A DNA stretch of 64,000 nucleotides from Psammoneis japonica (taxonomy: Eukaryota). The notes beneath the pieces were generated by a model that was given only the letters and a program-made list of their open reading frames with translations, was not told the DNA's origin and did not search any database. The position numbers and the translations under genes are program-made. The stretch is from positions 1 through 64,000 of the forward strand of contig QPGO01000220.1 of the NCBI GenBank assembly GCA_008632985.1, given 5' to 3'. Within the stretch, counting starts at the first letter, position 1; every line of letters begins with the position of its first letter. Below, in pieces: positions 4,469 to 54,123 of this stretch.

Positions 4469-5408
4469 GATTGGCAGTCTTGCTCATTGTCAACCCATTG
4501 AGCAACCGCCATCGTCGTTGTTGATTTACCGACAACGCCGTTTCAATTCTGCGTGGACCTCCGTGTGTGTTCTACACACATCGGCAAGTCTGCGCGCATT
4601 CAACACCAGGCATCGGCAGGAATTTAACGTCACCGTCAAGTCTCCTTGCCGCTGGATGTCTGGATTGATCACACTGCCTTTTGTCGCTGAAGACATGCAT
4701 TCAACGGTCATGTCCAAGTCTGTCCTTGATCCTCATCCCTTGATGCACCCATTCAACGGTTAACGGTCAAGAACCCTGCACATTCAAGGATCTTCGTCGC
4801 TGAAGACATGCATGTGTGCATGTCTTCACGGCCAAGAACTTGCACTCACTCTTTGGACTGCGGCTTTGCTGCCACTCTACAAGCACACCGAGTCCATTGC
4901 ACCTGATCTACCCCGGACTGCTGGTGCTCTACAGTTCTGCTGGGTCCACGAGGACCACTGTGAGAGCAAGTGGCCGTGATTGCAGCCTACGTTGGGGCGA
5001 GGGTGTTTTTTCCCGCGTTTGTTCGTTCGTCCACAGTGCCTGACGCCTGCGTCAACTGGCCAGCCTGATCGGGAAATCCAACCGACATAAAACAAGAACG
5101 GTTTGGGGGTCTTGTCCACCTCCAGTCAGCTCACCTGCAGGGGTTTACAACCCGCTGCTCCGCTCGCAAGCAACCCAAAGCGCCGCTGGCTGCGGGTTCG
5201 GACGTGCCGGCACAACTCTACGGACCGGACAGGAAGTTTGGCACTTGACAACGAATGGGATAGCACAGCCTGGCGACTTCTGATTTTAAGGCAGTTCAAG
5301 ATTTCAAGTCAAGTCCATTTCAAGTCAAGTCTGTTCTCACCCAAGTTTCAAGTCTGCCTTCGCGCGTCCCAACAAGAATCGCTTGTCCTGACACCACTTT
5401 TGTCTGCC

Positions 5409-10430: not shown

Positions 10431-10482
10431 ATTCCATCCAAAGTCGAATCTGTTTCTGTGGCTCCTCAAGCAAACTGGGGAG

Positions 10483-10758
10483 TGACAGGATTTGAGCAGG
10501 ATTTGGGTGCGCGCGAAATGTCGCGTGCTGTTTGGTTTGCCGCGCACAGTTTTGTGTGCTTTGGCTCCGTGTGTTCGCACGCGATGCAGTTTGCTTTCGA
10601 GCCACAAGGCTCACAAGAACAACAACAGCCGCCCGATTGCACTGACTTGCACGTCTTTTGGCTCCTGCAACGGTCTCTGAGCGGAGACTCATCTGCCATT
10701 TAGACAGCAGCAAGGAGCCATTGTTTGAATTCTTGCCATTTGCCTTCGATTTCTGTCA
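10483..10758 (+). repeat. 3' LTR
   Basis: Ungapped match to 5' LTR (about 24 substitutions by manual alignment); preceded by short purine tract GGGGAG. Confidence 0.95.
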
Positions 10759-11342
10759 GGCACTTCCAAAACTTGGAAGCATTTGTGGGCATGGGCTTTT
10801 CAGAATCAAATGGAACAGAGAATGTTGTCAATGCTCAAGATGGTGTTTTCATTTGGAGCAAACGCACATTGAAGAAGCTGCAAGAGGCCAAGATGAGCGG
10901 TGCCGAGATGAAGTCGAAACAATTGCATCTAGTCTCACACATGCTTGAGTGCATTTACGATCTGCTCATTTCCCCATCCAAGAATGTTTCAGTTAGTTTC
11001 GGTTTCGAAATGTTCTTGGGAACCTTTAACTGATGCTATAGCAGTGGTTGCATCCACATCGTAGCCGGCTAATGATCATTGCCGGAATTTGCAACACCAC
11101 GCGTGATGCGCTGTGTGCATTGTGCATGCCGTTTCACACAAAAAACATACAGTACTACCGTACGAGCTCTGCACTGAGGGTAATGCAATTATGTTTTTTA
11201 AAGCTTTTGGAGCTCNAAGCCGGTCGACCGGCTTTTTTCCTACACCTGTAGATACGAAGTAGGAGAGTAGGGCCCAGCCTACCTACCGGTATTTATTAGT
11301 CTACCGGCGTGAGTTCCGAGACAGAAATAAGCTGTACCTACC

Positions 11343-21689: not shown

Positions 21690-22289
21690 GGTCTTGCCAC
21701 CTCTGTTGATTCTCCGTGTTCTGCTTCCAACTAATACGTCGCAATGCAATCTAATGAAAGAGCAATCAGTCAACCTGCAATACTTCTGCAGGCTCCAATC
21801 GGTTTTAGACGGGGTTGTGGTCTTGCAACAGGAACGACTACAAGATGCGGTTCGTTTTTTGTTTTTGAGCAGTTGTTCGGGTGAAAAAGTGTGAGGTGAA
21901 ACTACGTGTGTTTATATTCATCCTACAGTGCTGTTAATATAACATCGGTTGAACGGATGAAAGTGAAATTCAGCGAGCTGTATCTTTATTTGTACGTAAC
22001 GGCAAGAACTCGCAAAATGATACTAAAAAAATGAAAAAAGACATTTCAGGCATGCACATTACTTATTAAAGAATAAAATTATTTATAAATGAGTGTATGC
22101 AAATGATCTTGCGTGACATCAACGCACACAACGCATGGATGGAGGGCGGGGGAATCGCGCGACTTCGCACGCTTTTTGGGTGACTGGAATTCGAAAATTC
22201 ATGGAGAGAAAAAACAAAGCGACCCCCAAACATGGTTCTGTCATTTTCGGAATTTGGGAACAACTCTAACTCTAGACACAACATAAACA

Positions 22290-23389
22290 CGCAACCTTGT
22301 CCATGACATTCACCATTGACTTGATTTGTTGGCAGGCAAACTGAGGCTGATGTCAGCGCAGCAACTCTTGCAGAGGTTGGTGACGTTGCAAGAAAAGGCC
22401 CACCCACTTGCAAGAAGTTTTGATCAGGAAGAACGAGAAGCAGATTGGATGAAAAGAAGGCACAGAAACAACATGAAGAAGCCTCTATGACCAGATCTGA
22501 AAAGGGCATGACAAACCTGTGGAGGAGATCAATGAGCTCCTCTGCAAAGGCGTGAAGCGTTGAAACCCATGAAGCCAAAGCCATTGATGGAAAAAGAGCA
22601 TCAGACAGACAAGAGGAAAGCACCAGAAGAGTGGAGATTTAAAGAGCCAGAAGTTGAAAATGAGGAGCTCATGCTGCAAAATGAAGTGTTGATGACTCGA
22701 GCCCAGCAGTTTGAAGCAGTTGGCAGCGACCCCAGGGTCAAGACACTGCATGTGTCGACTTGGCATTCATGATGGGGCACAGGGAACAAAGCTCAACGAA
22801 ATGAAAACAAAAGCAGAGGAGGAGCTGCATGATGCTCAAGGCAAGAATTGCAGTCCATGGACAAAGAACAATGAGCTCAAAGCTGCCATTGACAAACTGA
22901 AAACAAGAGCCATTGAAACAAAAATGAGAGGCTGCTGAAGCATGTTGCACGTCATCATCGAAGAGGCGAGCAGCCGAGAGCTCAACAACACAAAGAGAAG
23001 CTGGAGAAGGAGCTGCACGTGGCTTTGTGTGGATGTCTGCAGCCTGTCTGCTGAGAACAAGAGATTAAAAAAAGAAAAGTTTTGGCTTGAGAAGGGTGTG
23101 GAAAATTGAAATCAGCATGTTCTCAACATTGCAAAAACTTTGACACCCTCAGCAGAGAAAAATGTGATTGCAGAACCAGAGCATGGAAATGCTGGAGGTG
23201 GACATGGACAACTAAGAAAATCATTGCAGTCATGTGGGTCTCCGCAAGGATCAGCAACAGCCCAGTGAGTGCAATGTGCTATGTGAGGATGAAATCTTGT
23301 TTTTCGGATAAAATGAGCTGAAAAGGATCGCTGCTTTAAGAAGATGCTTGGTTCCACCTTGAAAATCTCAAGTCTTTGTGGTGGTGGTG
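22290..23389. repeat. TpA-depleted degenerate island (coiled-coil-like coding relic) adjacent to a gap
   Basis: Broken Glu/Lys-rich + strand frames, very few TA dinucleotides versus TA-rich flank at 22000-22290. Confidence 0.5.
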
Positions 23390-23563
23390 NNNNNNNNNNN
23401 NNNNNNNNNNNNNNNNNNNNNNNNNNNNNNNNNNNNNNNNNNNNNNNNNNNNNNNNNNNNNNNNNNNNNNNNNNNNNNNNNNNNNNNNNNNNNNNNNNNN
23501 NNNNNNNNNNNNNNNNNNNNNNNNNNNNNNNNNNNNNNNNNNNNNNNNNNNNNNNNNNNNNNN

Positions 23564-26392: not shown

Positions 26393-27724
26393 CATCTTGG
26401 GACGCATAACACTGGTTAGTCACGAGGGAAATTGTATAGAGCAATATTAATCATGGACCGTCACTACTATAGCTAGTTGGAATACACAGAAGAATGCTTG
26501 GAATCGCAGAACAATCCCTCCTTTAGCGAATTGAATTGAGCGAGTTCTGAGAACTAGCGATTTGATTGCTCATTTGGAAGAAATGAATGATGCTACTGAA
26601 ATATCTAGTTTAGTGCCCATCAAGATATTATGCAACACGGGAGGGTTTAGCAAATGTCCGATAGCGGGTCCAATGTTTCGAGTGAACCCTGAAGTAAGAC
26701 AACGTTTGTTTGAAAGCAAGTGCAGCTTTGCAATGCTGAAAATTAAAATGATGTCAACTACAGCTAATTTGCCTTACTGAGAAAACAGACTCCCCCCCCT
26801 CTCTCTCTCCTCTTGGTGTCCTCGTTTTCTATAAGAGGTTGATCCATGCACCCGCATCAGAAGCAAGCAAAGGTGAATTTTCGTCGGGCATGTCTTCGTC
26901 CGAGGTCTGAATCATGTGACACGAAAGAAACTGCCCAACTTTCCTTGACACCACTTTTCCATGCTCGGTCTCGGGTTCCAAAAAGGACGTTGAGGCAATC
27001 CTTGCAAGATGTCACAGACCAGAATTTCTTTAGTCAGCAAGTCTTGAGAATGCCATCATCGCAGCACTGTAGGATTGAATCCCGCTCCGCACTTGATCAT
27101 TGTCAACCTGGCAACAAGCACTCCAAACAACAAAGCAGAAAGCCCAAAGCAAAGAGACAGGCCCAGAGGGAGCATTGGGTGAATCCCAGTTGATCACAGG
27201 AGAGGTCAGCACAGCAGAAGAAGACACCAGCAGTTTGCTCAGTGGACATCACAAGCCAAGTGCAAAGCCATGCATGGCTGCTGGGTTGTCATTGGTGCTG
27301 ACAATCTCAATGTGCACTTGTCAATGATGTGCTTTTTGCAGTTTTGCAGAGAGAGAAAAGCAAGCTTGGTGAGTCCTTCCAATGTTGATCACAGAGTGAA
27401 ACTGCATGAGTGCTCACTTGCTGTTTCACTGCCAAGGGCAGAGAAAGACAAGTGTGCTCCACTGGGCTGCTGACAGCAGAGTGCAAAAAATCGCCTCCAC
27501 ACCCACAACAAAGTCCAGCTCTTTTGATTTTTAGCACCACCAATGTGACTTCCAGCTGGCCTGATTCAGGCGCAACATCCCTGTTGATCCTGCATCATTT
27601 TGGCCCCTCTTTGTTGTTCTTCTAAGTGCCAGCACAGCCTCTGCCAAACTCAGAACAGTGCTCCATGGTGACGAGTCAGGAGATTTGCATCTGTGCAGCC
27701 AACCACCAAAAGAAATGGCACAAT

Positions 27725-28095
27725 CATCATGATGAAACAGCAAGAGTCCAGTGGTGCAAACCCAGCCAGGGCCTGCACATCCAGGCAGGCTGCTTGTGCT
27801 GATCTGAGCAAAAAACACTCTCTCTGTGACCACCAGAGAGAGCAACTGTGTCAGAGGAGCTGGCAGCAGGTGATGGCAGGGCCTGTGACCAGCATGTGGC
27901 TGCTGTGTTCATGACAAAACAGCAGGCATCTGGCAGCCCAAACCCAGCCATGACCTGTGCACCCAGGTGGGCTGCTTCTGCTGATCTGAGTGAAAGGCCC
28001 TTTTTGCAACCAGAGAGTGGCTGTGGCAGAGTGGCCAGCAGCAGCAGCTGATGGCAGGGCCTGCAACCAGCAGCATGTGGGGCTGCTGTGCTCTT
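27725..28095. repeat. Degenerate ~185-bp tandem duplication
   Basis: AAACCCAGCCA...GCTGATCTGAG and GATGGCAGGGCCTG..ACCAGC..ATGTGG each occur twice. Confidence 0.7.
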
Positions 28096-29807
28096 TGGTG
28101 GAGAGGCCTGACACAAGAGTCTGGGTGTCAGTACCAGCCTGACGCTGACAACATGTGCAATCACTGCCTGCTCCCCACACCCCAGGCCATGTCCCCACAC
28201 CACACATCCCTTCAATCATGGGCTCAGAGCAAACCCAGGCAGGACACCATTGGTTTGGCCAGGAGATTGAAGATGCTCTGTGGGTGGATGTGAGCATTCA
28301 TTTGAATGTTGAGTGCTGATGCTCAAACACAGTGTGAAAAGACATGTGTTGCGTGCACCAGCCATGCACATGCAGAGCCTCTGTGACAACAGAAATTGCA
28401 ATTTTTGGGATTTTTTGCCAACGCCAAAATCAAACATCACAATGCCATGCTGAGTGCTGGTGAATGCATGTGGCTGATGATGAATGTCCTAACTGAGCAT
28501 CATTTTTTGAAGAGGCTGATGCCCCCTGCAGATGATGAGAAACTCCCAACCAGTGCCAAAAAGTCACAGAATGAGAGTGATTGCTCCAAGGATGAGGTGT
28601 GGAAAACACAGCTGCTGAGTGCTCAAAAAGGCTGGCACAAGAATGACACAACAGCTGCTGATGCCATGGAGTCAACATGACAAACAAACAAAAACAATGC
28701 TGGGTGGGGGGTGAGCCATGTGTGTGTGTGTTTTGGCTGCAAGGCTCTGTGTTGCTCTTGAACAAAAGAGCGACATTGCACTTTGTTGCAGAGGTGGTTG
28801 GAGTGTGGTGCTTTTGGAACCCTAACCTGCTGCAATGATTTTTGACTGAGAGTGCTGCAGCAGCAACTCTGCTGTCAGTTGAACACAAGAGAGACAGTGG
28901 CATTGCTGACAGTGGGGTCAGACAGCATGGCTGCATGGACTGATCTTGCGCATGCGCAGCAGGCTGAGTGGTTGCCAGATTGTGAAGGCACACGTGCATG
29001 TGTGAGGTGCAAGCAGGAGGCCAAAATGTGCAGAGTTGTTGATGCTGAGTGAGTCAGCAGATGGTGGATTTTTTCCTGTGCTTGATCTGTGTGCTCTTCA
29101 CGTGGAACACGACAATGTCTGGGTGTGTTGTGGGGGGTTTGCACATGACACACAACACACATGTTGTGCTCTTAACATGCACATGATCCAACTCAAAAAA
29201 GTGCCAGTGCAGAACACTCCAAAACAAGACTGGAGTCTGGTAAAAAAATCTGTTTAAAGTGGTCAGACGAGCAGGGTTGTTTTGAAGATTTCTCAAGTTG
29301 CCCTCATTTTTGTTGGGTGTGTCTCAAAACATCTGCCAGCCACTGGCTCAGCCAAAATGTGCTGCCCCTCTCCTTCACACACAAACAGCAGCCACAGCAC
29401 AATGATGCCCAATGACCAGCACCACAGCAGCATGGCAAGCAAAGCAAGTGGTGCTCACCAATTTCCACGAGTGCAGATGTTTTGAGATGAGATCAAAGTG
29501 ATTGTGGATGACACATGCTTTGTTCCTGGGCCAAGTTGCATTTTTTTCTCATCACTTGTCATCATGTCATTTTACAATGTTTTGAAACACTGTTTTGTGT
29601 GAGATTCATGTGAGCACTTGCTTGGAAAAAGCAAGGTCTCAAGTGCATCTCACTTCTTTGGCCACACCACCAATGGCTTTTCTTGCAGGGCGTTGCCAGT
29701 TGGGCAGTCACATTAAACCTGGCTGGGCACAACCAACTGGCCCTGTCCAGGTTTGCTCATGTGCTCTTGTTGTTGCTGCTTGTTGTGTTGCTTGCACCAG
29801 GTGACAA

Positions 29808-30219
29808 GGTTGTGAGGAAAAGCTGAAAAGAAAAAAGAAGGCTTCAAAGGCTCCGCTGGTGGCTGGAGATCTGTTTGCACACCCGAGTCGTGCATGAGTT
29901 TGCACTCTGTTGACACCGGTGTTCTGTGGGGCACTGTGTGTCTGACATCAGTGATCAAAGCATGCATGTGGTGCTGCTGTGTTGTCACAATGAGATCATT
30001 TTGATTCAAGATGACGCTTCTGTTGCCTCTGTTTTTGCTTCTCTCGGAGGCGGTCAGGGATTGGTGCAATGCATGGGATGGGACCAAACGCACCCTTGAC
30101 AACACATTTGAAGTCCACCTGAATGATGGCCAAACTGTGATGCAAGGGTTGGGCAGCATCACACTGGGCAACGGAATCTGCTGCAAGATGTCTGCAAGCC
30201 CCCACCTTTGCATCAGCCA
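29808..30219 (+). pseudogene. Hypermutated partial copy of the upstream region and 5' CDS of the 37326-38405 gene
   Basis: Aligns to about 37125-37552 (TTGTGAGGAAAAGCTGAAAAG; GGGCAGCATCACACTGGGCAACGGAATCTG). Confidence 0.92.
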
Positions 30220-30829
30220 ATGATGTCAATGCAGTCACATCATTTGCACCTGCACATGATCTCCAGAGCTGCAGCCCTCATTCTTTCTCTGCCTTGCTGG
30301 GTTTGGGTGGATGCAAACATGAGAAAGACAAAGTGTTGGTTGTGAAAGCTTTTTTGCTTCTTTGGCTGTCAACACATCTGAGCATTTCCTCTTTGCATGA
30401 CATTGACCTGACGAGAGTGTGAGTTGTTGTGTGGGAGCGGCGATGTGGCAATGTGGGTGTCACCAACACCCCACAGCCTTCAAGAACAGAGCAGAAAACT
30501 TGTCTTTGTCATCTTCTTTGTGGATGATGGGTGAATGTTTTGAGGCAGATCGTGCTCTGTTCTCACTTTGTACACTGGCCAGTGCCGTCGTGTTCTCTCC
30601 TCTGTGTCTTCAGAGTGCCAACATGCTTTCTGCAGTGAGGGAATTGTTTGTGGTTGTTGATGCACCTGCCCCCCAAGTGCCAAAGAAAGCCATGTCCTGA
30701 GCTTTTGCTTTTTGCAGATTGTGGTGGTGCCCTTCTCGTGACCAGGATTCTGTCCATGCTTTGCCACTGCTGTGGCAGATGTGTGTGATGCATGGTGTGC
30801 TTTCTTCAACACCCTCCAGGTCTCCAACA

Positions 30830-31830
30830 GGACTGATCAGAGCATGTTGCTCTGCTCTTGCAGGACTTGTGCCTTCTTCATCTCCATCAGTGGCTCCATC
30901 ATCTGTTTCAGGCACTCTCCTGAGTGAAGCTCCAAGCAAAGCCCCCACTGACAAACCTTCTCAAGTCCCCAGTCCACATCTCCAACTGTCAAATCCATTG
31001 TCATGCTGTCTTTGTCTCCATCCATGGTTCCCAGTGACATGCCGACACCATCATCTGTTGGACCCTCCAGTTCTCCATCTGACAAGCCAAGTCCAGCCAA
31101 TTGAGCACAGGACTTGTGCCTTCATTGGCTCTCTGAGCACCCACATCATCTCCTTCTGAAGGTGCGCCAGGCAAGCTCCAAGCAAAACACCCAGTGATGA
31201 AACTTCTGGTGCACCATCTGCTGTTCCATGTCAATCACCAACCAGCAAACCTGGTGTTCTTGCACTGCTTTCATCTCCATCCTTGGTTCCCAGTGATGTG
31301 ACGACACCATCATCATCTGCTGCACCCTCTGGTTCTTCATCTGATGAGCCCAGCCAATCAAATGCAGAACTTGTGCCTTTGTTGGCTCCCTCAGCAGCTG
31401 CACCATCTTTTTCTGGAGGTGTGCCAAGTGAAGCTCTGGGTGAACACCCAGTGACAAAACTTCTGGCACTCCATCTGCTGCTCCACGCCAATCTCCAATC
31501 GTCAAATCTGGTGTTGCACCACCTTCATCTCCACCATTGGTTCCCAGTGATGTGCCAACACCATTGTCATCTGCGGCACCCTCCAGCTCTCCATCTGATG
31601 AGCCCAGCCAATCAAATGCAGGACTTGTGCCTTTGTTGGCTCCCTCAGCAGCTGCGCTGTCTGTTTCTGGAGGTGCGCCAAGTGCTGAAGCTCTCCAGGT
31701 GTTAGACCCAGTGACAAAACTTCTGGCACTCCATCTGCTGCTCCACACTAATCTCTAACTGGCAAATCTGGTGTTGCACCACCTCCATCTCCATCCTTGT
31801 TTCCCAGCGACATGCCGACAGCAACATCAG
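30830..31830 (+). repeat. Four ~250-bp tandem units encoding degenerate Pro/Ser-rich stalk (PSDVPTP..SAAPSSSPSDEPSQSN)
   Basis: GCAGGACTTGTGCCTT-like anchor near 30860, 31107, 31365, 31618; resembles a pseudogenised cell-surface protein. Confidence 0.8.
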
Positions 31831-34200
31831 ACAGGCTGGAAATTTCCATCTGGCGGGAAATTGATTGACACCCTGTGTGCAACCAAACAACCAAACAGTT
31901 GTTAGCTGAGGGTTCTGGTCAACTCCTGGTGACCAAGGGGTGGACTTTAAGAGCATTCATTGCAGTTGGCTTGGTTCATCTGGTGTTGTTTTGGTCCGAC
32001 AACACCCAAGGCCATCAGCAGACTGACTTGATTTTTCCATCTGGACAATGGATGGACACCCCAAGTGCAAGAACCAACTGGCTGTGCAGTTGTCAGCCAA
32101 GGGTTCTGGCCTTCTTGCTGTGTGCCTGGGCTGGACTTTAAGAGCATTTGTTGTCATTGGCAAGGTTCATCTGGTGTTGCTTGGGGGGTCAAAATTGCCC
32201 AATGATGGCAGCCAGCAGGAGACAGCTGACATGATTTTTCTGTTGGGACAATGGACAGATTCATCAAGCACGACAAACAAACCAAACAATTGTCAGCAGA
32301 GGGCTCCATTCAACTCATTGTGATCCAGGGGCAGACTTTGAGAGCATTTGTTGTGGTTGTCTTGGCCCATCTGGAGTTTTTTTGGCACAACATTGCCCCA
32401 GGCTGGAAGCAGAGATGTGCTTGAATTTTCCACCTTGACAATGGATGGACACCCCAAGTGCAACAAAGAAACCAAACAGTTGTCAGCTGAGGGTTCCAGC
32501 CAATTCATTGTGCTCCTGGTGCCAACTTTAAGAGCATTCATTGCAGTTGCCTTGGGTCATCTGGTGTCATTTTGGCCCAGCATTGCCAAAGGCAATCAGC
32601 AGTCAGACTTGATTTTTCCATCTGGGCAATGGATGGATGCCCCAAGTGCACCAAACTGGCCATGCAGTTGTCAGCCAAGGGTTCCAGCTTTCTCACTCTG
32701 CCCCTGGGGTGGACTTTAAGAGCATTTGTTGTGGTCAGCAAGGCTCCTGTCATCTGGCATTGTTTTGGATCAAGAGGTCACACAAGGGCAGCATCAAACA
32801 GACTCAATCTTTCTGTCTGGACAATGCACCAGGTTGTCAGCAGAGGACTCCAGCCAACTCACTGTGACCTGCAGGTGGACTTTAGGAGTGGCTGGTGGTT
32901 GGCTTGTTTCATCTTGTGTTGTTTTGGCCCAACTCTGCCCCAGTCTGGCAGCCGAGACAGGCTTGCTTTTTCCATCTGAACAACAGACACCCCAAGTGCA
33001 ACAAAGAAGTCAAACAGTTGTCAGCTGAGAGTTCTGACCAACTTGCTGCCTGTGACCCAGGGATGGATGAGAGAGCTTTCATTGCGGCTGCCTTGGCTCA
33101 TCCCTCTGGAGTTACTTTGCCCCAACATTGCCCAAAAACAGCAGCAGACAGACTTGATTTTTTTGTCTGAACAATGGACAGACAACCCAAGTGCTGCAAA
33201 CTGACCATGCAGCTGTCAGCCAAGGACTCCAGCCAATTTGCCATGGCCCAGCAGTGGACTTCAATGGCATTGTTGTGGCTGGCTTGTCTTGTCTTGTGTT
33301 GTTTTAGCCCAACATCACACCAGTCTGGCAGCAGACAGAGACTTGCATTTTCCACATGGGCCATGGACAGACACCCCAAGTGCAACAAAGAAACCAATCA
33401 GTTGTCAGCTGAGGGCCAGCTCACTGTGACCCAGGGGTGGGCTTTAAGAGCACTCATCATGGTCATCTTGGTTTGGCCTTTGGTGCTGTTTTGGCCATGT
33501 GACAGACTTTCAAAGCATTCATTGTGGTTGCCTCAGTGTTCATCTGGTGTTGTTTTGGCCCAACATCACCCAAGAGCAGCAGCAGACAGACTTGAATTTT
33601 TCATCTGGACAATGGATGGACACCCCAAGTGCTGCAAACTGACCATGCAGCTGTCAGCCAAGGACTCCAGCCAATTTGCAATGACCCAGGGGTGGGCTTC
33701 AATGGCGTTGTTGTGACTGGCTTGGCTCGTCTTGCACTGTTTTAGTCCAACATCACACCAGTCTGGCAGCAGACAGAAACTTGCATTTTCCACATGGACC
33801 ATGGATGACACCCCAAATGCAACAAGAAACCAAGCAGTTGTCAGCTGAGGGTTCTGCCCAGCTCACTGTGACCATGGTCATCTTGGTTTGGCCTGTGCTG
33901 GTGCTGTTTTGGCCATGTGACAGGCATTCACTGTGATTGCCTTGGTGTTCATCTGGTGTGTTTTGGCCCAACATCACCCAAGAGCAGCAGCAGACAGATT
34001 TGAATTTTCATCTGGACAATGGATGGACACCCCAAGTGCTGCAAACTGACCATGCAGCTGTCAGCCAAGGACTCCAGCCAATTTGCCATGACCCAACAGG
34101 GGTGGACTTTAACAGCCAATGAACAAACCCCAAGCAGTTGTCAGCTGAGGGTTCTGGCCAGCTCACTGTGACACAGAGGTGGCCACCTTGGTTTGTCATT
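31830..34200. repeat. ~190-bp tandem satellite-like array, about 12 diverged units, A/B alternation
   Basis: GACACCCCAAGTG-like anchor near 31868, 32055, 32448, 32636, 32986, 33181, 33370, 33619, 33807, 34026, followed by CAG(T/C)TGTCAGC. Confidence 0.88.
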
Positions 34201-37200
34201 CTATGGTGTTGCATCAGCCATGTGACACCCCAGCCCAGCAGCAGATGCAACAGAGTCCCTCTCACCAATGACTGGACACCTGAAGTGGCAACAAAGGTTG
34301 TTGAAATGCCGCAGCTGTCTTGCTTTGTTTCCAACAAAGAAGCACACATGGCTTTTGAAAAAATGGCAGAACTTGAACACACTTGCAACATTCTGCAGTG
34401 GCAGATGGGACATGTTGCATCAACAAATGTTGAACTCCTTTGAGGGAGAAAATCACAATCACAGGTTGGCCCTCAGAAAGGGCTCAGAAGACAGCTGTGC
34501 CTTGAGAGTCATCATCTTTGCACTCATGCTCTGAGGCATCTTGCTGCAACTGGGATTCTTTTGCTTGGTTCTTTGGTCACAAAATGACCCCAAGGTGAAC
34601 ATTGCTTGATTTCTTCTTTCTGGCAATTTCCACCAACAACTTGCCAATTGGAACATGTGATGTCACCCCTCCACAAAGATCAATGCTCCCACCAGCTCCA
34701 AATGTTTCACAGCTTCTTTGTGCAGCTTTTTGACTCTTTCTGTGTCAAACACATGCAAGTTGGCATCAGCACCTGTGTCAGCCAGGTTCATTGACTGGAA
34801 AACAAGCAAAGTGCATTCCCCTCCAGAAGCCAGAAAATCAGCATCAACTTTGTCTTTGTTTTTTGGTGGAGAGAATGTTTTCTAGATGGAGTCTTGTCTG
34901 TTGCCTGTCCTCTGTGATCTGATTTGCTGAACAGCTGTTGGCACTGCAACTGTGGTGGTGAAGATGGGGCAATGTCCACAACCTTCCCAGTTTCCTCCAA
35001 AGCCACCAGAGTTGCACCTTTTGGTTGGGCATCACATGTCAGAGTCAGAGTGAAGAAGACCTGCTGACTGTAATTTCTGGCTTTTGTTGCTCCTGCTTGT
35101 GCTCTGCTCTTGCCTTGTTTCTTTCCAGCATGCAAGTTTTTGATCCTTGTCTTCAACTTCTCAATCTCATCAAACCCACCTGACTTCTCTCTGCCTTTCT
35201 TGCCAAGCAAGATCTCTCTTCTCTGCAGCAACAACAGGACAATGCTGACAATGGGATTGCACCATCACATTGCAATGCATGGCACAGTGCACCCCAATGC
35301 CAATGACATTGCTGCCAGCAGGAACACTTGAGCCAAAGAACAAAGAAGTGGCAGAGTCCTTCATGGCAGGGGCAGTGAATGGATGTCAGGGTGATGTTGA
35401 TGAAAGGAACACCAAAAAAGTTAAGATGACTGTCAACTCAACCAAAAGAAGCAGACATCAAGGTGAGAACATCATGAAAGTGCTGGCTTGATTTTGTCAT
35501 GTGTCCTTTTCCAAGAAGTGTCCTCAACAGCTCTGCTTTTTGCATTTTCAGCAGAGCCAAGGAGACAGTGCAGTCAAACCCCAATAAAAACATTTGGCGA
35601 GTCATCCTCAGAACAGTTTTTCTCTTTTGTTTTTCTGGTGACTCAAAAAAAGAATGCATTTGACCACCATTCTTGCAGCCAGAATGTCAAAGAATCCTTT
35701 GCCTGCAAGTCTTGTCCCGCAAACCCAACAGGATGAGAAAACCATGGATGGGGCTCAATGATCAAATGTTTGCTGCATTCAGAATCAGAAGAAACTGTGT
35801 GGTGGAGTGCCACATGGAAAGCCAGTTCCACCAACATGCACTGACTTGGATCATTTTGTTGCGCTCCACTTGACTCTCTGTTGATGCACGCGGCATTGCA
35901 CCACAGGCCCCAGATGAGAACAATGCTGTGCCTGAAGCACAGTCCAGGAATGCTGGTGGAGGAGGGCACCAGTTCATTCCTGGAGCTCTGGCAATGGGTT
36001 GCTCCCCAAAAGATTGGAGGTGCCCTCAAACCCAGAAACATGTGTGAGACAGCGGCTGGCATGCAGGAATGAAACCCAGCAATGTCCAAGAAGGAAGACC
36101 CACAAACTCACCTGGAAAAAGGTGAAAACTCCAACAATGCAACTGGGAAACCCTGTTTCCAGCAATTCCTCCAGAAAACGTGCCATGGTGCATCCAAAGT
36201 CATGCATGAAGAAGTTCGTGCAGAAAATCCAGCAACAGTTGTGTGCAGTGTCCCAAAACTGCTCAACAAAGTTGAAGATGCTGCACCCACAGATCAGATC
36301 TGGATCTTTTTGGTGTGTGTTTGCATGTGTTTGAGGATGCCTTGCATGTTGTGCAGTGTCCATGAAGATCTGGATCCAACCCAGATGTTGTTTTGAAAGT
36401 CCAAACAAACAACATGCATGCAGCACAGCAATTGACCATGTGTTTTGGCAACACCAGGAGAGATCTGGGCAGTGCACAAGCAGGAGGAGCACCACAGACA
36501 ATGCTGCAGGTTTCACAATGGTCGTTTGCAGTGTTGTGGTTTTGACAATTCATTGCAGACTCTGCAACATCATCATCACAGACTCCCAACACTGTGAGAG
36601 TGCCCATGACGCTGTGTTGTGGGGAAGCCATGGAGTCTGGTGCACCACATCCAGGCCTTTCTGAGACACTTGCTTGTGCAGCGCACTGCTCTCATGGAGA
36701 GGAGCACAGCTGTGATCTTGGGTCAACTTCAAAGCTGCCTTTTTTCATTGTGGCTTGCTTCTTGTGCACCCAGCCTTGGCTCTGAGGGTCTGCCAATTTG
36801 CTGGAATGACCCAATTCCCCCCCTTGACCCGCTTTGCCGGTTTTCAAAAAGGCCACTCATTGCTGCACACCCAGAGTGAAAAGTGCTGCATGCTGCTCTC
36901 TTCATTTACACTGGCACCTTGCAAACTGCTGGTCCGCTTCCCAGTGTGACGCCGCCAGAAAAAAAAAACTCCAAGACCTGGCTGGCGCTGTTGAGCAATC
37001 TTTCCAAGTGTTGGAGGCTTGATGGCAGATGCAGGAACATCAAGAAGTCAAAGAGGAAAACCTCGGTCTAACCCGAGGATGGCATTGCTGACAATGGGGT
37101 CAGTGACAACAGATTCAATGAGAGATTGTGAGGAAAAGCTGAAAAGAAGGCAAGAATGAAGAAGGCCATTCAAAATGACGGCAGGAAACCGAACGCGAAT

Positions 37201-37325
37201 CGCGCATGAGGTCACCGTGCACCGTCGTGTTTGAGTCACCTTGATGACACCAATGTTCTGCGATCTGCGATCTGCGATCTGCGAAATTGTGAGATGTTGT
37301 GATCGTACTGAGCATCACCATCACG

Positions 37326-38405
37326 ATGAGATTATTTGGATTCAGAACGACGCTTCTGTCGCCTCTGTTTCTGCTTCGCTCGGACGCGGTCGGGGATTGG
37401 TACGATGCATGGGGCGGGACCATACGGACCCTCGATAATGCATTTGAAGTCGACCCGAACGACAGCCGAACTATGATGCGAGGGTCGGGCAGCATCACAC
37501 TGGGCAACGGAATCTGCAAGATGTCCGCAAGCCCCCGCCTTTACATCAGCCACTCATCGGATGTGGCAGGGTGGGAGAATACCGACTTCCAGGTGTACGG
37601 AATGTTCGTCCAAGCTGGCAACCTGAAGAGCTACTCCGGCCTTACCCTGGTGACCCGGTCCAATCACGATCTGTACAGCACCGACGGCTGCGAGGCAATG
37701 GGATACTACGCAAGAATCTACTGGCAGACGGGCGAGCTGTCGTTCCAGAAGGAGTATTACCATGGGTCGGGTGGCACAGTTTACAGCCCATCGAAGAGAG
37801 TCCCGTACTTTGTCAACGGCGTCCCAATGAACACCTGGATCGGGATGAGGTTCACAGCCACAACGACCGGCTCGAACAACGACGAGGTACAGCTGAAACT
37901 TTACCTTGATGAGGTTGGCGACGGGAGCTGGGTCCTAAGACACTCGTACACCGACAAATCTGGCGAGTGGTTGAGCACAAGCTCGTCCACCGTCCCAGCA
38001 GAATGCCCACAGAGCGATGGCGACACGGTCCTGGGCCCGCGCAACGTCTGCTTTCTCCGATCCGACGGGTCGTCCGACACGGAGGTGCACTGGAAAGACG
38101 CTCTCGTCCTCAACGAGTTGGATCCATTGCCGACATCGTCCCCAGCTCCGTCGACTTCTCCGATTCCTATCGTTTGTGAAGGCATCGTGCCCAAATCGGC
38201 ATGCAACGACGCTTTCGGTGGTTCTGTGTGCAAATGGAGTGGGCACCCAAATAAAGGATCGTGTGGGCCTGTTGATGGCGGAGGTGCAGGGCCCGGACCG
38301 CCCTCGGGTTGTGGTGGAAACAATGCCCCGTGCTCCACCCCCTCGCAAAACACCGCTGATTGCTGCAGTGGCTGGTGCAAAGCAAATGGGAAGTGCAGTA
38401 AATAA
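37326..38405 (+). CDS. Putative secreted protein: beta-sandwich (lectin/polysaccharide-binding-like) domain, P/S linker, Cys-rich C-terminus
   Basis: Hydrophobic N-terminus; aromatic-rich beta strands (NTWIGMRF, VQLKLYLD, FLRSD); C-terminal C..CCSGWC....KC; start could be 37299. Confidence 0.7.
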   Translation: MRLFGFRTTLLSPLFLLRSDAVGDWYDAWGGTIRTLDNAFEVDPNDSRTMMRGSGSITLGNGICKMSASPRLYISHSSDVAGWENTDFQVYGMFVQAGNLKSYSGLTLVTRSNHDLYSTDGCEAMGYYARIYWQTGELSFQKEYYHGSGGTVYSPSKRVPYFVNGVPMNTWIGMRFTATTTGSNNDEVQLKLYLDEVGDGSWVLRHSYTDKSGEWLSTSSSTVPAECPQSDGDTVLGPRNVCFLRSDGSSDTEVHWKDALVLNELDPLPTSSPAPSTSPIPIVCEGIVPKSACNDAFGGSVCKWSGHPNKGSCGPVDGGGAGPGPPSGCGGNNAPCSTPSQNTADCCSGWCKANGKCSK

Positions 38406-41744: not shown

Positions 41745-42380
41745 GAACGTTCGCAAAACCGTTCATCGTCATCGCAACGTTACCCCCTTGCAGCGACAAT
41801 AGTGCGCTTTCGCACGCCCTCTGTTTGACGCATTGTTGTTAGGAGCTCAAACTGTGAAAACAAGACATCCTTTCATTCATTCATTCATTCGTTTTCATTC
41901 ACACCGGCACATGCGTGCCGTGCCGTATGGCACATGCACAATGGACGATGAGGAGGCGGCGCGGGAAGGCAGAAAGCAGGCAGTGCAACAGCAGGCCCCA
42001 CTTACCACTGTACTGCACCTGCCAAGCGAAGGGCCCTGCCGGCACTGTAGGGCCCTACTGGTAGTCTCTACTGGTAGGAACCTACGGTGTGTTCGTCGTC
42101 GTGCGTCAAATTCAACACATTGAACACATCCGGGGCGTTTTGATGCATTTTTGCGCTCTCAACGCGCGAGAGTCGTTGAGGGAATGCGGCACTTTTGTCC
42201 GGCAGAAAGTCACACGAACACTCCTGTCCATCGATCAAAATCGTCGCGACCTGCAGTCGCCACATTTTTGATGCCTCGTGTCGTCAGGAACAAACGGCTT
42301 TTGTGCTTGTCCCATCATTCCTCATTCACTCATTTTATTTTGCAATTACACAAAACGCACTCCTCAACATACCGGTAACA

Positions 42381-44936
42381 ATGAGAAGTATACGACGGCC
42401 TTTCACGATGTTGCTCGCTTCTTGCATGCAATTGCTATTGGCAGTTGATTACGCTGACGCCTTTTCCATGTCTACACCTCCAGCCGCCTTTGGAGTACGC
42501 TCGTTGTCTTTGGCGGATCACAAAACAAGTCTTGCAGCGGCAACCACCACCACGGTCAGCACGGAAACTTCTTTGAGAAACAAGTTTCAGAGCGCCGTCT
42601 ATAGTGATAAACCCATTGTACTGCTTGGATGTTCTGGAGCGGGCGGTGAGCTCCATCGTCTCGCACAGTCACTGCAAGCAGAAATGGGCAACAACAGCAA
42701 CGAAGCAGACGCAATTTCTGTAGCAGGAATCACGTCGGACGGAACATTCAATGTCGAGAAGGATGACTTGCTCCAGTATGTCGAAAACCAACAAAGTCAA
42801 GTTCCCAATGTGATTGTTCTTGATTTTAATGACGATTACTTTGCCATGAATGACGGAAAGCATGCGACGAAACTATCGAGTCACTATGCCGACTTGGCGG
42901 AAGCCTTGTACGAGGACGCTGGGTTGCTTTCAATTTATGTTAATGTTCATCCTCAAGATGGCAAGATGAACAAGGAGGTATCGGGAAGAAAGAATAGCTT
43001 GGAAGACGACGTCTTTGTCAAGTATTCTGATTATGAGCTGTGCATCAAGGACGAGGGCATGTCGGACCAAGAAAGTGATGATGATTGGTTGCACATTGAA
43101 TGGGAATTACGTCGTATTGTCGCTCGCGCACAGCTTGCTCCGGCCATACCGGGAGGTGAAAACAGCTCCGTCAACAATCCTGCCCTCACCATGGGAAAGC
43201 ACACCTTTTTCTTGTCTCTTTCCTTTCCGGATATCACCGAGGTGAAACCGTACGTGCAAGAAATGTGTCGCGATGTCGATGCTATGGAGTATCGTGCCGA
43301 TTTGCTGGATTGTCGGGATAGTCGATTCGACTCGATTTATGGACAACAGCAGCTTCGCAAGTATTGTCGTCCGCACGCCAAGCGATCGCCGGGTCTGCCT
43401 TTTAAGGGAATGGTCATTGACGATGCCTTGCCCATTGTTTATACGGTTCGAACGCAGCACCAAGCTGGAACCTATCCAGATGACAAAGAGGGAATCGAGA
43501 AAATGTTTCAAATGCTGGAGTGGGGATTGCGATCCGGAGTGGAAGTGCTGGACGTTGAGAGCGCGTGGGACGAAAAGCTCACAGACGAGTTGTTGACACT
43601 TGCCGAAGAGAGGTATTCTACTCAGATTTTGGGAAGCCACCATGTTGTCGGAGAGGAGGTGGAAATAGAAGAAGCCGTCAAAATCTTCCAGCAGTGTGCT
43701 ATTGGTGGACGGGCTCATGGTGCCAAGGTGGTGTTGAGTATTGACAGCGACGAAAATGACAGAATGGCGTACGATGCGGCATCGATTGCCTCCAGTTTGG
43801 CAGCAAGAGACGGAAAGCCAGTCATTCCGAGCGTGTCTCTTATTCTTGATGATAAGGGAAAGTACTCGCGAGTCCTCAACTTTGCATTTACTCCCGTGAC
43901 GCACGAATCATTACCCTTCAAGGCGGCACCGGGCCAAATGACGTCGAGCGAAATCATGACGACACGGCTCTTGATGCAGATCTTTCAACCAATGCGATAT
44001 TGCATATTGGGACACAACATTGCCTATTCGGTTAGTCCACAAATGCAAGGGGCCGCATTTGCTGCAGCAAGGTTGCCTCACGAGTACTACCTTGCCGATG
44101 TTGAAACGGTGCAAGAGTTTGTCGAATCAGACTTTTTCAAAGCGGACGATTTTGGAGGTTGCAGTGTCACCATTCCTCATAAACAGGCCATCATTCCCTA
44201 TGTGGATATCATGAGTGACGCCGCTTCCACGATTGGTAGCGTCAACACTCTAGTCGTCAAGGAAGAATTCCAAGATGACGAAATGAAACGAGTCATTTAC
44301 GGCGATAACACGGATTGGAGAGGAATATACAATCCTCTACAGCGCAAACTCGGAGGAAAGCAGTCATCAGAAGATTACGCATTGATTGTCGGGGCGGGAG
44401 GAACAGCAAGAGCAGCGGCCTATGCGGCCGAGAAGCTCGGACTGAAAAGAATATACTACAATAGAACTCCAGAGAAAGCTGCCGAATTGGCGGATTCTTT
44501 TGGGGGCGATGTGGTAACAAGCATTGAGTCTTCCAGCGAGGATGGAAAGAATCTTGGGGATATTCTAAAGGATGGGTCTCTTCGAGTGGTGATTAGCACG
44601 TTGCCAGCTGGCGCAGGCTTTGTGCTTCCGGACTGGATTGTATCGGACATGAAACCGATTGTGTTTGATGTGAACTACAAGCCATACAACACAGACTTGC
44701 TTTTGCAGTCAGAAGATGCCGGGTGTCAGGTAGTACGCGGCTCCGAAATGCTGTGGGAACAGGGTGTTGGCCAGTTTGAGCTGTGGACGGAACGAACAGC
44801 CCCGTACAAAGTGATGAAAGACGCCGTTCTCGAAAACTGCATCCCAAAGGAAGAGGAAGAAAGCGACGAGGATATTGAGGAGAAAGAAGTGCAAGTAGAA
44901 GTTGTAGCGGAGCCGCAAGTTGCGGCAAAGGACTAG
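42381..44936 (+). CDS. Plastid-targeted bifunctional type I 3-dehydroquinate dehydratase / shikimate dehydrogenase (partial AROM-like)
   Basis: Bipartite-type signal ending ADAF; E.R.D, YTVRT..QAG, AAPGQ (DHQase I); [39 protein letters not shown] (SDH). Confidence 0.92.
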
Positions 44937-46959: not shown

Positions 46960-47600
46960 GGATGTTGCGGATTCCACAACGTCCATAACGTTAGGTTGCG
47001 GAATCCGTAACGGAACGAATTGTTAAAATCCGTAACAGTTACGGAATCCGCAACGAAACGCAATGTTGGAGAAGCCTCATCCTTGATGGAAGGTTTCCGC
47101 AATGTCCATTCCGTAACGTTACGGTGCGGAATCCGTAACGAAGCGCAATGTTTGAGAAATCTCATCCTCGAAAGAAGGCTTGAAAGATTTCGGAAATCGA
47201 GTCCGCAATGTTTGAGGAACACTGTCCTTGATAGAAGGTTTCCCCAACGTCCATTCCGTGACGTTGCATTGCGGAATCCGCAACGAAACGCATTGTTTGA
47301 GAAATGACATCCTCGATAGAAGGCTTGAAACATTTCGGAAATCCAGTCCGCCATGATTGAGAAACCCCATCCTCTATGGAAGGTTTCCACAACGTCCATT
47401 CCGTAACGTCCTGGAAAGATTTCCGCAACGAATCGTTAGGGAATCCGTAACGAAATGCAATGATTGAGAAACCTCATCCTCGATGGAAGGTTTCCACAAC
47501 GTCCATTCCGTAACGTAACAGAATCCGTAACGAAACGCAATGTTTGAGAAATCTCATCCTCGAAGTAAGGCTTGTAACGTTTCGGAAATCGAGTCCGCTC
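46960..47600. repeat. Complex CpG-rich tandem repeat (sub-units GGAATCCGTAACGAAACGCAATG, CATCCTCGATGGAAGGTTTCC, CGTCCATTCCGTAACG)
   Basis: Sub-units recur several times over about 640 bp. Confidence 0.9.
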
Positions 47601-49060: not shown

Positions 49061-50786
49061 ATGTCCATGATATACGGTACGTTTCCGGTCATTTTATCTA
49101 TAAAAATACTGTTGTAAGGAGCGCGTGTTCGCAAATAATCATTCTTGTTTGTTCCGTTCGCAATATACAGATGAATACGGCCGTCCCTTTATCATTCTAA
49201 AGGAGCAGCAGGCCAAGGCTCGCGTCAAGGGATTGGAGGCTCAAAAGTCCAACATTTTGGCGGCACGGTCCATTTCCAACATTTTACGCACCTCCCTCGG
49301 TCCCAAGGGTATGGATAAAATGATGGTAAGTCCCGACGGCGACGTGACTGTCACAAACGACGGTGCCACCATTCTGGATCGCATGGAAGTCAAGCATCAA
49401 GTTGCCAAGCTCTTGGTCGAGCTGAGTGCGTCCCAAGACGATGAAGTGGGTGACGGTACGACGGGTGTCGTTGTCTTGGCGGGTGCGCTCTTGGAACAAG
49501 CCGAGAAGTTACTCGATCGAGGTATTCATCCCGTGCGAGTGGCAGAAGGATTTGAAAAGGCAGCCGCCGTGGCCATGGAGACTCTCAAGGAGATTTCTGA
49601 TACGGTTGAATTTTCGGAAACCAACATTGAACCCCTCTTGACGACAGCCGAAACGACTCTCAACTCCAAGATTATCAATGTCAACAAGACCAAAATGGCA
49701 CAAATCGCCGTCCAAGCCGTACTGGACGTTGCCGATTTGGAACGTCACGATGTGAACTTTGACATGATTCGCATGGAGGGCAAGGCGGGAGGTGAATTGG
49801 CCGATACCGAACTCGTCAATGGCATTGTCATTGACAAGGACTTTTCGCATCCACAAATGCCCAAGTCCCTGACGGATCCGAAAATGTGTATTTTGACCTG
49901 TCCCTTTGAACCACCCAAACCCAAAACCAAACACAAGCTCGATATTACCTCGAAAGAAGCGTATGAAAAGCTCTATCAACAAGAACAAGACTATTTCAAA
50001 GAAATGGTCCAACAAGTCAAGGACAGTGGTGCCAATCTCGTGTTGTGTCAATGGGGTTTTGACGATGAAGCCAATCATTTGTTGTTACAGAATGGTTTGA
50101 ATGCCGTTCGATGGGTCGGTGGTGTTGAGATTGAACACTTGGCCATTGCCACGGGTGCACGCATTGTACCTCGCTTTTCCGAATTGTCACCCGACAAGCT
50201 GGGACACGCTGGATTGGTACGGGAAGTGTCGTTTGGGACGACACGTGAACGCATGCTTGTTTTGGAAGATTGTGCTCATCTCAAGGCCGTTACAGTGTTG
50301 GTCCGGGGTGGCAACAAGCTGATTGTTGAAGAAGCCAAACGGTCCTTGCACGATGCCATGTGTGTCGTGCGCAATCTCATTAAAGACAATCGTGTCGTGT
50401 ACGGTGGTGGTTCGGCGGAATTGGCGTGTTCCTTGGCGGTAAGCAAGTACGCGGATACCGTGACGGGTGTCGATCAGTATGCCATTCGGGCCTTTGCCAA
50501 TGCACTCGAAGACATTCCCCTGGCGCTTGCCGAGAATTCGGGATTGAGTCCCATGGATGAAGTGGCAGCGGCCAAGGCACGACAAGTCAAGGAGGACAGT
50601 CCCGTGATTGGATTGGGAGTGTTGGATCAAGAACCCAATGAGGATGGATTTCATTCTTGTGACATGAAAGAAATTGGTGTCTTTGAAACGTTGATTGGCA
50701 AACAAGAACAGTTTCAGCTTGCCACGCAAGTCGTCAAGATGATTCTCAAGATTGATGATGTCATTTCCATGGGGGAATATCAGTAA
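49061..50786 (+). CDS. CCT5: T-complex protein 1 subunit epsilon; exon 1 49061-49076, intron 49077-49170
   Basis: Spliced [56 protein letters not shown]. Confidence 0.97.
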
Positions 50787-52661: not shown

Positions 52662-54123
52662 GGTGATATTGTTGATGCGATACTTCACTTTCTTGCCAGA
52701 ACTGCGATTGTGAGACGAAGAAAGTGCGTGGCACAGTGCGTGCTTGCGTCTTTCGGATTTTCGCGTGAAGGCAATCGTGTCCGTCAAGTGCGAAGTTGGT
52801 TTTGACACAATTTAAACGGTACTGGGTCAATCAAAGTAATCATCTCGAATCCAAACTTGGAATGGCGCTACAATCTTCAGCGTCATGGCACAGCGCTTTT
52901 TCGTTCGCTCGTTTGCTCCTGGAGACTTTGCCAGAAATCTGTGTGAGGCAATCATTTTTGTCGTGCTTTCCGTTGACACGCATCTGACACTTACTTCTAT
53001 TTATAGTGGGGCTGTAGCGCCCAGCGCGGCTGAAACGCCTGACTTATGTGCGTACCAGCAAGAGAAGCCGACCAGGCAAGATCTGAATCTCCTGACCGAT
53101 GGCTCGACACCAGCAACGACCCAATACCAATAGTTCTATGACTCATCCAGCTTTGAAGGAAAATCAAGTCCAAACTTCTGACAACTCACTCAGCCNAAAC
53201 CTCAAGAAAGCAAAAATCAACAGCGATGGCAGAGAAAAATGGTTTTTGACAACAAGGGAAGCTGAGACACATCATCTGGGTGCCAGCCACTGATGTTGAG
53301 ATGCCAAGTGCCAAAATGCACATGGTGACACTCCACTCACATGATTCCATGCAACACAAGCACCATGTCATGTCCTCGTTGTGCTGTTCACCACTGCAGA
53401 AATGTTTGAAACGTGTTTTGTCAAAACTCGCTGCACACAGCTCGTCTGCCAACAAGGGCGCAGACAAAGCTTTGGAAAGCAGCGGCCCAAGAAAGCAATC
53501 CACCAACCCTTCCACGCCACACCCAGCGATGGCAAGAGTGCTCCCATTTCCATTTTTATAGAAAATTTAGATTCTCCGTTTCTTCCTTTGGAACCTTCTC
53601 CTGTCACAACCACAGAGCCCACCTCCAACCAGACACCACCAGCAGCATCGCGCCAAGGAGACTTTTTGAGACTGCCGGTTCATTTGCAAAATTCATTGAT
53701 CCCAATGATTCAGCTTCCTTTAGAGTCCCATTCCAAGACACCCAACATTTTTGGCAATCGACAAAATTAACTTGAAATTCACAATGTCTTCTGAACCACA
53801 ATCGCGCGAGAAATTGTGAGCTGCAGCAGCTTCTTCAAACATGGCCCACCACCACGACATCATCTGCTTCGCGAGAACATCGTACCACACAACAAGTCTA
53901 TTGGCAAACACACGACACCTCAAAGCTCTGCTGCAGGGCCTGGATGCCTTCTCCAACAAGTTCGCCACCGGCACTGCTGTGAACTTCCACAACACGCGGG
54001 GCAATAAATGTACGAAAAAAAAGCGCGAACAACCAGCGAAAGCTTGGCAACCCGGATCTCGGTATCCGAAACTTTCCATCCGACATGCGAACAGCACATC
54101 CAACATCAAAAACCGATTTCACC

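Follow-up and report, generated by a model that had tools for sequence, protein, structure and literature searches.

Sequence context of surviving TpA sites in TpA-depleted repeat islands of the diatom Psammoneis japonica

Introduction

What decides whether a TpA dinucleotide survives in DNA from which nearly all TpA has gone? The question is raised by a stretch of 64,000 nucleotides from the diatom Psammoneis japonica (GenBank assembly GCA_008632985.1, contig QPGO01000220.1, positions 1 to 64,000 of the forward strand; the whole stretch is called the window below), in which repeat islands are almost free of TpA and rich in CpA and TpG. A first-pass annotation of this DNA had listed the survivors of one island (26960-37100) and had seen in them an enzyme-like motif, with flanking T/A tracts protecting the site. 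Here the survivors were counted against background, their context was modelled in this island and in replicate islands, and the changing base pair was read from a retrotransposon and a gene fragment. Survival depends on the bases flanking the TA on each strand, and the process that removes TpA probably acted on the DNA in place.

Results

The window is gene-dense (about 48% G+C; open reading frames, ORFs, long and nearly intron-free) and contains five islands with sharp edges (boundaries within about 200 bp). In the islands the observed/expected ratio (o/e) of TA was 0.05-0.12 and that of CA/TG 1.5-1.8, compared with a TA o/e of about 0.54 in the background and about 0.4-0.7 in the flanking genes. 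TA and CG (background o/e about 1.04) were the only dinucleotides that fell, and CA/TG the only one that rose. AA/TT was unchanged (1.17 in the background, 1.17-1.23 in the islands), GA/TC went from 1.14 to 0.95-1.08 without clear depletion of TC, and among the A-containing dinucleotides TA was lost alone, AA, CA and GA being kept.

Island A (26833-37305) consists of the interval 26960-37100 with 34 TA, plus shoulders of 156 and 236 bp (26833-26988 and 37070-37305) in which the listing of TA positions has none; its CpG-depleted core spans 26990-37178 (CG o/e 0.02-0.19). Overall o/e values were 0.05 for TA, 0.12 for CG and 1.84 for CA/TG, with ranges per kb between 27001 and 37000 of 0.02-0.09, 0.02-0.19 and 1.6-2.2, respectively. 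Island B (1-10930), the replicate, had a TA o/e of 0.03-0.26 and kept most of its CG (0.56-0.93); the overall values, counted over 1-10950, were 0.12 and 0.76. The three small islands were pooled as set C: 22097-23400 and 62462-64000, both depleted in TA and CG, the second continuing past the window end, and the short TA-free stretch 53138-53556. Counted as 22250-23400, 53250-53500 and 62480-64000, set C gave o/e values of 0.06 (TA) and 0.24 (CG).

The manual tally of the first-pass annotation, about 35 surviving TA with about 29 of them in TTA or TAA, proved close: 34 TA were counted in 26960-37100, 29 of them (85%) in TTA/TAA. For the background, 39,986 undepleted bases of the window were used, holding 1467 TA, of which 590 (40%) lie in TTA/TAA. 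The excess in the island is strong (Fisher odds ratio, OR, 8.6, p = 1.2e-7), so that the survivors do not match background NTAN frequencies (N, any base), and it persisted after seven homologous survivor positions, in the satellite or its higher-order repeat, had been collapsed (22/27 in TTA/TAA, p = 2.8e-5).

To compare contexts, each NTAN class was normalised by how many pyrimidine-purine (Y-R) steps occur between those flanks, and by its share of TA in the background. Relative survival in island A was 0.94 for TTAA and 0.36 for CTAA/TTAG, then 0.11 for GTAA/TTAC, 0.05 for GTAC, 0.04 for CTAG, 0.03 for ATAG, 0.025 for ATAA/TTAT (one survivor in 26960-37100), 0.014 for CTAC/GTAG and 0 for both ATAC and ATAT. 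Island B, which is satellite-free and has kept its CG, showed the same extremes of the scale (TTAA 0.43, CTAG 0.34 and CTAA/TTAG 0.30 at one end; ATAG 0.05, ATAC 0.04 and ATAT 0 at the other). No ATAT survives in any of the three island sets, compared with 101 in the background, and the most sensitive sites were those preceded by A or followed by T (ATA, TAT). When resistant (TTAA, CTAA/TTAG) and sensitive (ATAN) classes were contrasted (background 184 vs 676), survivors numbered 23 vs 2 in island A, 18 vs 9 in island B (p = 9e-7), and 23 vs 15 in island B and set C together (OR 5.6, p = 4e-7).

The graded scale was described by a Poisson additive half-site model, in which each strand has its own hit rate, determined by the nucleotide that precedes its T. 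The fitted rates were A 1 : G 0.66 : C 0.38 : T 0.10. By the Akaike information criterion (AIC) this model (-159.5) was better by 48 units than the TTA/TAA rule (-111.8), and uniform loss stood at -77.4. At the -2 position, in the three island sets, T made up 0.44-0.54 of survivor half-sites vs 0.27 in the background, and A 0.12-0.13 vs 0.30; relative survival by 5' context was 0.40 for TT-TA, 0.04 for AA-TA and 0 for TA-TA.

These results refine the earlier proposals. T-runs on the 5' side and A-runs on the 3' side do go with survival; A/T richness as such does not protect, and it is the orientation that decides, so that tract protection holds solely as pyrimidine tract - TA - purine tract. 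The context dependence is strong and enzyme-like, but the TTA/TAA rule is incomplete, since ATAA/TTAT is nearly erased. The TTTAG common to both long terminal repeats (LTRs) of a retrotransposon is real (4411 and 10701), although the LTRs lie in island B, beyond the interval 26960-37100 under which it had been listed. TTTAAA and AATAA had been said to survive in both of the "411/748 repeats"; the repeat search and self-BLAST found no such repeats, and each motif occurs once (29255 and 35585, respectively).

The change itself was followed in the retrotransposon, a Ty1/copia element of island B on the forward strand. Its 284-bp 5' and 3' LTRs (4186-4469 and 10476-10759) are 91% identical, and a frameshifted pol remnant at 8029-10448 (RVT_2 plus downstream sequence, Pfam RVT_2 E = 5e-22) carries one in-frame TGA. 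The reverse transcriptase (RT) has 2219 homologues at E <= 1e-20, and the position of RVT_2 between direct LTRs assigns the element to Ty1/copia. The two LTRs differ mostly by whole-dinucleotide swaps, one LTR having TG where the other has CA. An element integrates with two identical LTRs, and CG is largely kept in island B; the ancestral dinucleotide was therefore TA, and each LTR was mutated independently, on opposite strands, which excludes editing of RNA or cDNA.

A change of TA into TG or CA predicts that Tyr codons (TAY) become TGY (Cys) or CAY (His), and this is what the pol remnant contains. Conserved-Tyr columns were defined on a tblastn alignment of the remnant with 120 homologues (at least 60% Tyr); 28 were obtained and 27 used, the one at 8760 being a frame-overlap duplicate. 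They now read Cys 14, His 6, Tyr 5, Trp 1 and Phe 1, Tyr thus being kept at 5/27, vs 414/473 other conserved columns unchanged (p = 1e-14). The in-frame stop (TGA, 9711-9713) stands where 96% of 109 homologues have Arg and fits a CpG hit (CGA>TGA). A metagenome scan with the RT returned two short relatives (56-60% identity, TA o/e 0.65 and 0.36), which have Tyr where the window copy has Cys or His.

The products were split by the preceding base. Of the codons with a pyrimidine on the 5' side, 13 had gone from TAY to TGY and one to CAY; with a purine there, the outcome was CAY in five cases and TGY in one (Fisher p = 0.002 for the split). With additional polarised events (two GTA-G>GCA-G Val codons and three gene-fragment sites), 17 of 19 discriminating events fitted R-T-A>R-C-A (R, purine; p = 0.0007). 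The changing pair is thus the one that adjoins the purine, and R-T-A>R-C-A is the same event as T-A-Y>T-G-Y. Read from the sequence in this way, the target word is 5'-T-A-Y, or T-A-Y-Y with the -2 effect (R-T-A if thymine is the substrate), with 3' bases in the order T 1 > C 0.66 > G 0.38 > A 0.10 and a pyrimidine favoured at +2. A product analysis by tetramer excess had been tried, was confounded by the base composition of the islands and was replaced by the Tyr-codon test.

One of the 120 homologues, a copia RT from another public assembly (P0209), has 0.9% Tyr vs a median of 4.9%, and at the 14 conserved-Tyr columns that it covers it has seven Cys and three His, its products being often unlike those of the window copy at shared aligned positions. 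Going by this protein signature, the process does not appear to be confined to the present locus.

In island A the direction of the changes is known from a gene fragment (29985-30224, forward strand) that is 85-89% identical to 37321-37557 (forward strand), because this parent, which lies in ORF 37293-38405 just outside the island, is unmutated and has kept its TA and CG. All six TA of the parent are destroyed in the fragment (6/6), five of them having become TG or CA; many CG became TG or CA, and several were kept. A satellite of about 190 bp with at least 12 units occupies 31859-34325 (Tandem Repeats Finder, TRF, anchors and unit alignment). Many of its columns alternate between TG and CA from unit to unit, and the units were therefore mutated after amplification. 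Survivors in TTTAAG, TTTAGG or TTTAAC are located at 31948, 32139, 32529, 32717, 32883, 33445 and 34110; the satellite sites reported earlier as GACTTTAAGAGC are the TA at 31948, 32139, 32529, 32717 and 33445, each lying two bases beyond the coordinate first given.

The same island holds a tandem repeat of 254 bp (3.2 copies, 31015-31829, TRF), in the ORFs of which no Pfam domain was found. A 3.8-kb contig of run X2 overlaps this repeat (31009-31042) and has flanks containing TA and CG; to judge from these, it may represent an unmutated paralogue of the gene behind the repeat.

The sequence itself was checked against read data. Contigs of run X1 span all 30 bins of the interval at a word depth of 35-55, one of them being identical to it along 1394 bases, and the sequence is therefore no invention of the assembler; run X1 is possibly the assembly's own data and hence not independent. 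Next to no words of the interval were present in runs X2 and X3. Among 35 listed differences between variant contigs of run X1 and the window, 12 were CG<>TG/CA, three TA<>TG/CA (27623, 33744 and 27347, where the window keeps TA) and four TG<>CA swaps (27411-27412, 28279-28280, 28299-28300 and 30318-30319). The variants are either the other haplotype or alleles, or paralogous copies mutated independently.

Loss of TA and loss of CG are uncoupled: relative survival in island B was 0.16 for TA and 0.8-1.1 for CG, island A has lost both, and none of the islands seen in the window has lost CG only. In island B and in the gene fragment TA has gone and most CG is kept, and TA loss therefore probably precedes CG loss. 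The contexts of CG loss differ merely about 2-fold. At four island edges (10771-10929, 22097-22266, 26833-26988 and 37070-37305) the TA-free zone exceeds the CpG-poor core by 156-236 bp. These zones (721 bp) have no TA vs 26.5 expected, and 39 CG vs 43 expected, a normal density; they were picked post hoc, which inflates the p-value. The overshoot corresponds to about one nucleosome of spill-over into unique flanking DNA.

In the gene-rich part of the window, a tandem repeat of 145 bp (2.4 copies, 83% matches, 47059-47409) has kept its TA and CG, which suggests that short local repeats are not targets. Taken with the unmutated parent 170 bp outside island A, it also suggests that a silent chromatin domain would be targeted rather than any duplicate.

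Several observations weigh against a context-specific mutator acting as described. The base is limited (one 64-kb window, with about 24 kb of depleted DNA in total), and the expected counts take the gene-rich remainder of the window as a proxy for the ancestral repeats. Neither island B (33/66, p = 0.12) nor set C (7/13, p = 0.40) shows a significant excess of TTA/TAA as such, and in set C the contrast of resistant vs sensitive classes (5 vs 6, p = 0.07) is a trend. The half-site model leaves a residual deviance of 40.2 on 24 degrees of freedom, a mild overdispersion. Two of the 19 discriminating events run counter to the rule (TTAT>TCAT in the gene fragment and CTAC>CCAC at 10200), and sequence alone does not separate A from T as the substrate base. 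The satellite TTTAAG sites could be shielded by bound protein or selection and not by enzyme preference. Finally, TA adjacent to CpG (TACG/CGTA) survives in island B at 0.33, vs 0.06-0.15 after GG, AG and TG, an advantage of 2-5x over other NG dinucleotides that lies outside the model (examples at 4988, 5219, 5958, 6752, 7731, 8084, 8761, 8871, 8952, 9016 and 9903); such a CpG is possibly methylated and may impede the mutator.

Other features of the window

The loss of TAA and TAG has left long overlapping false ORFs of up to 973 aa in several frames (5091-10703, both strands), none of which matched Pfam, a trap for gene callers. None of 22 ORFs of island A matched a Pfam family at E <= 0.001, and a faint MLKL_N match in an island A ORF (E = 0.09) was disregarded. 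No deaminase family was matched among the window ORFs scanned against Pfam.

Two of the genes outside the islands were annotated. An ORF at 49104-50786 encodes TCP-1 epsilon, with 84-85% identity to proteins of the centric diatoms Trieres and Attheya, the closest among the named hits. The bifunctional dehydroquinase-shikimate dehydrogenase at 42180-44936 has an N-terminal extension of about 345 aa that opens with a signal peptide and an ADA-F cleavage-type motif. We take this motif after a signal peptide to be the plastid-import pattern of heterokonts, and its presence suggests that the enzyme is plastid-targeted.

Discussion

The explanation that best accounts for these data, and that we regard as probable, is a mutator acting on DNA in place, after insertion or amplification of the repeats, which turns TpA into TpG or CpA in repeat islands. 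Each hit would be a transition from A:T to G:C in one or the other pair of the TpA. Its chance on each strand would depend on the base that precedes T (complementary to the one that follows the other strand's A), with a further effect of the next base outward in the same direction. TTAA and TTAG/CTAA, at best in TTTAAA-like surroundings, would offer slow half-sites and so provide most of the 34 survivors, ATAT, ATAC, ATAG and ATAA being erased. In older islands a slower and nearly context-free loss of CpG would accompany that of TpA. The CpG loss is most simply read as the ordinary decay of methylated CpG, accumulating with age, and the TA reaction as a fast, possibly pulse-like enzymatic step. 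A single dual C/A deaminase for both losses was considered and is not favoured, given TA at 0.16 vs CG at 0.8-1.1 in island B and the 2-fold context range of CG.

As to chemistry, the footprint is read, tentatively, as that of an enzyme that deaminates adenine in DNA at T-A-Y, the likeliest of the reactions considered: a deaminase drawn to silent chromatin would convert adenine into hypoxanthine at 5'-T-A-Y(-Y). Of the agents that the first-pass annotation had put up for comparison, Pol eta (WA; W, A or T) is disfavoured by the unchanged AA/TT, and the T-A preference commonly ascribed to TadA/ADAT-like enzymes is compatible, a match of context that names no enzyme. More speculatively, a chromatin-targeted enzyme might edit adenine at 5'-T-A-Y in double-stranded DNA as a genome defence of diatoms, a natural A-to-G editor. 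Such a defence would remove the TpA of transposons and satellites and that of a flank about one nucleosome long, and, if it is real, the survivor spectrum TAT > TAC > TAG > TAA would be the substrate fingerprint of the predicted enzyme.

The rival that fares best, though we think it unlikely, places the chemistry on thymine: a TET/JBP-type enzyme would modify T in R-T-A of silent repeats (to 5-hydroxymethyluracil, 5hmU, or a J-like base), and mispairing with G or faulty repair would fix T>C. The footprint R-T-A>R-C-A is equivalent to T-A-Y>T-G-Y and would serve equally. Against this, 5hmU pairs well with A and strong mutagenicity is not known for it, and we know of no diatom enzyme for the route. 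Dinoflagellates offer a precedent among algae of the SAR (stramenopiles, alveolates and Rhizaria) group: a TET/JBP enzyme makes 5hmU, which marks and silences transposable elements, and older work cited for 5hmU gives a TA/TC preference (both from the available part of PMC11572971). The base-resolution map of Breviolum, as far as it is given in the accessible part of PMC11071213, shows 5hmU without sequence preference. In the window TC is not clearly depleted (GA/TC o/e, above).

Error-prone repair synthesis of the Pol eta kind in heterochromatin, inserting G opposite T at WA and so giving TA>TG, is improbable. Hot spots of Pol eta are indeed WA, with TA above AA, and give A>G, and since TA is palindromic both strands would be mutated. 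However, AA/TT is undepleted while TA is down 5- to 10-fold, and AA would need a mutability more than 10x lower than that of TA. The near-saturation also looks enzymatic, with 20/25 Tyr codons changed (Tyr/Cys/His outcomes), 6/6 TA of the fragment and few other changes.

It is slightly less probable still that the survivors owe their contexts to something other than the mutator, either as TA regenerated by TG/CA>TA or as sites that selection or a bound protein (such as a satellite factor on GACTTTAAGAGC) has shielded. Five to seven of the 34 survivors represent a single homologous position of the satellite, and some back-mutation must occur, TG/CA being very abundant in island A. Yet the survivor classes differ from local TG/CA contexts with the satellite copies collapsed (Monte Carlo p = 2e-4), the same resistant classes survive in the satellite-free island B, and some satellite units have decayed to TTTGAG or TTCAAT, the site thus being ancestrally TA.

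A-to-I editing at the RNA level (of ADAR or ADAT type), fixed through reverse transcription of a retroelement, is barely credible. A-to-G change is the hallmark of RNA editing and island B does carry an LTR retrotransposon, but a difference in product (TG vs CA) at the same sites of the two LTRs is impossible before integration, the satellites, the gene fragment and 156-236 bp of unique flank are mutated as well, and AA is untouched and 3' G slow (0.38), which is unlike ADAR as commonly characterised. Chance, base composition or a sequencing or assembly artefact, such as miscalls of modified bases, is just as hard to credit, for although a single window was analysed and run X1 is perhaps the same data as the assembly, the context effect (p = 1e-7 vs background) recurs in island B (p = 9e-7), run X1 contigs reproduce the sequence at depth 35-55, and the Tyr>Cys/His signature is found in an unrelated database protein (P0209).

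To our knowledge, repeat-directed hypermutation is known exclusively as C-to-T change (repeat-induced point mutation, RIP, and its relatives; APOBEC). A process that changes A:T to G:C and is aimed at one dinucleotide would differ from these in chemistry and would belong to another kingdom. Should the agent be a DNA adenine deaminase, it would be the natural counterpart of the adenine base editors evolved in the laboratory, and a defence built on it a chemistry known from no organism. Candidate deaminases or thymine-modifying enzymes could be scored against the fingerprint T-A-Y(-Y), or its mirror R-T-A, with its 10-fold range of rates. For annotation, TA-free repeats without TAA and TAG stops are a hazard through their long false ORFs, and transposon proteins poor in Tyr and rich in Cys/His offer a searchable signature.

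Comparison with known systems

The full-text literature, a coverage that leaves out subscription journals and supplements, yielded no account of hypermutation directed at TpA, whether in diatoms or in other organisms, and it is not described in the available parts of PMC2806351, PMC9998398, PMC9258296, PMC11572971 and PMC11071213. The diatom retrotransposon study of Maumus et al. 2009 does not mention such hypermutation in the part that is accessible (PMC2806351). For DNMT4, the RID-related protein of diatoms, the accessible text of Hoguin et al. 2023 (PMC9998398) states that the function is unknown. The dinoflagellate 5hmU system is similar in that T is chemically marked in the repeats of a SAR-group alga; in contrast to the present case it is a modification and not a fixed mutation, and the parts of PMC11572971 and PMC11071213 at hand report no TpA erosion.

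In island A and set C, the change of CpG into TpG/CpA resembles processes known from other repeats. Basidiomycete transposons undergo TpCpG hypermutation, and methylated repeats undergo CpG decay. Unlike these, the CpG loss here has a 2-fold context range and lags behind the loss of TpA, and the TpA part is left unexplained by them.

With ADAR hyper-editing and APOBEC3 the islands share clustered transitions that inactivate retroelements. ADAR accepts 5' U or A and favours 3' G, and APOBEC changes C; the substrate of both is RNA or pre-integration cDNA, whereas here the LTRs were mutated independently after integration, AA was spared and 3' G was poor.

TadA and ADAT deaminate A34 after the universal U33 (the TadA site is UACG), and early TadA-derived editors prefer YA. 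The islands are like these enzymes in that T(U) is obligatory directly 5' of A, 3' C is good and A changes to G. They are unlike them in that chromosomal DNA takes the place of tRNA loops, T on the 3' side equals or surpasses C, and the +2 base is preferably a pyrimidine and not G.

RIP of ascomycete fungi changes C:G to T:A, mainly at CpA, creates TpA and leaks into flanks; it requires an enzyme of the RID/DNMT type and takes place before meiosis. Like RIP, the process described here acted on DNA in place and on repeats, and left sharp islands, a dinucleotide skew, saturating transitions, dead transposons and spill-over into flanks. Unlike RIP, it destroyed TpA through A:T to G:C change, raised CA/TG and did so in a diatom. 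In RIP the length requirement exceeds 235 bp; here a 235-bp fragment, shorter than that minimum, was mutated and its intact parent next door spared, and the targeting therefore looks domain-based and not copy-based.

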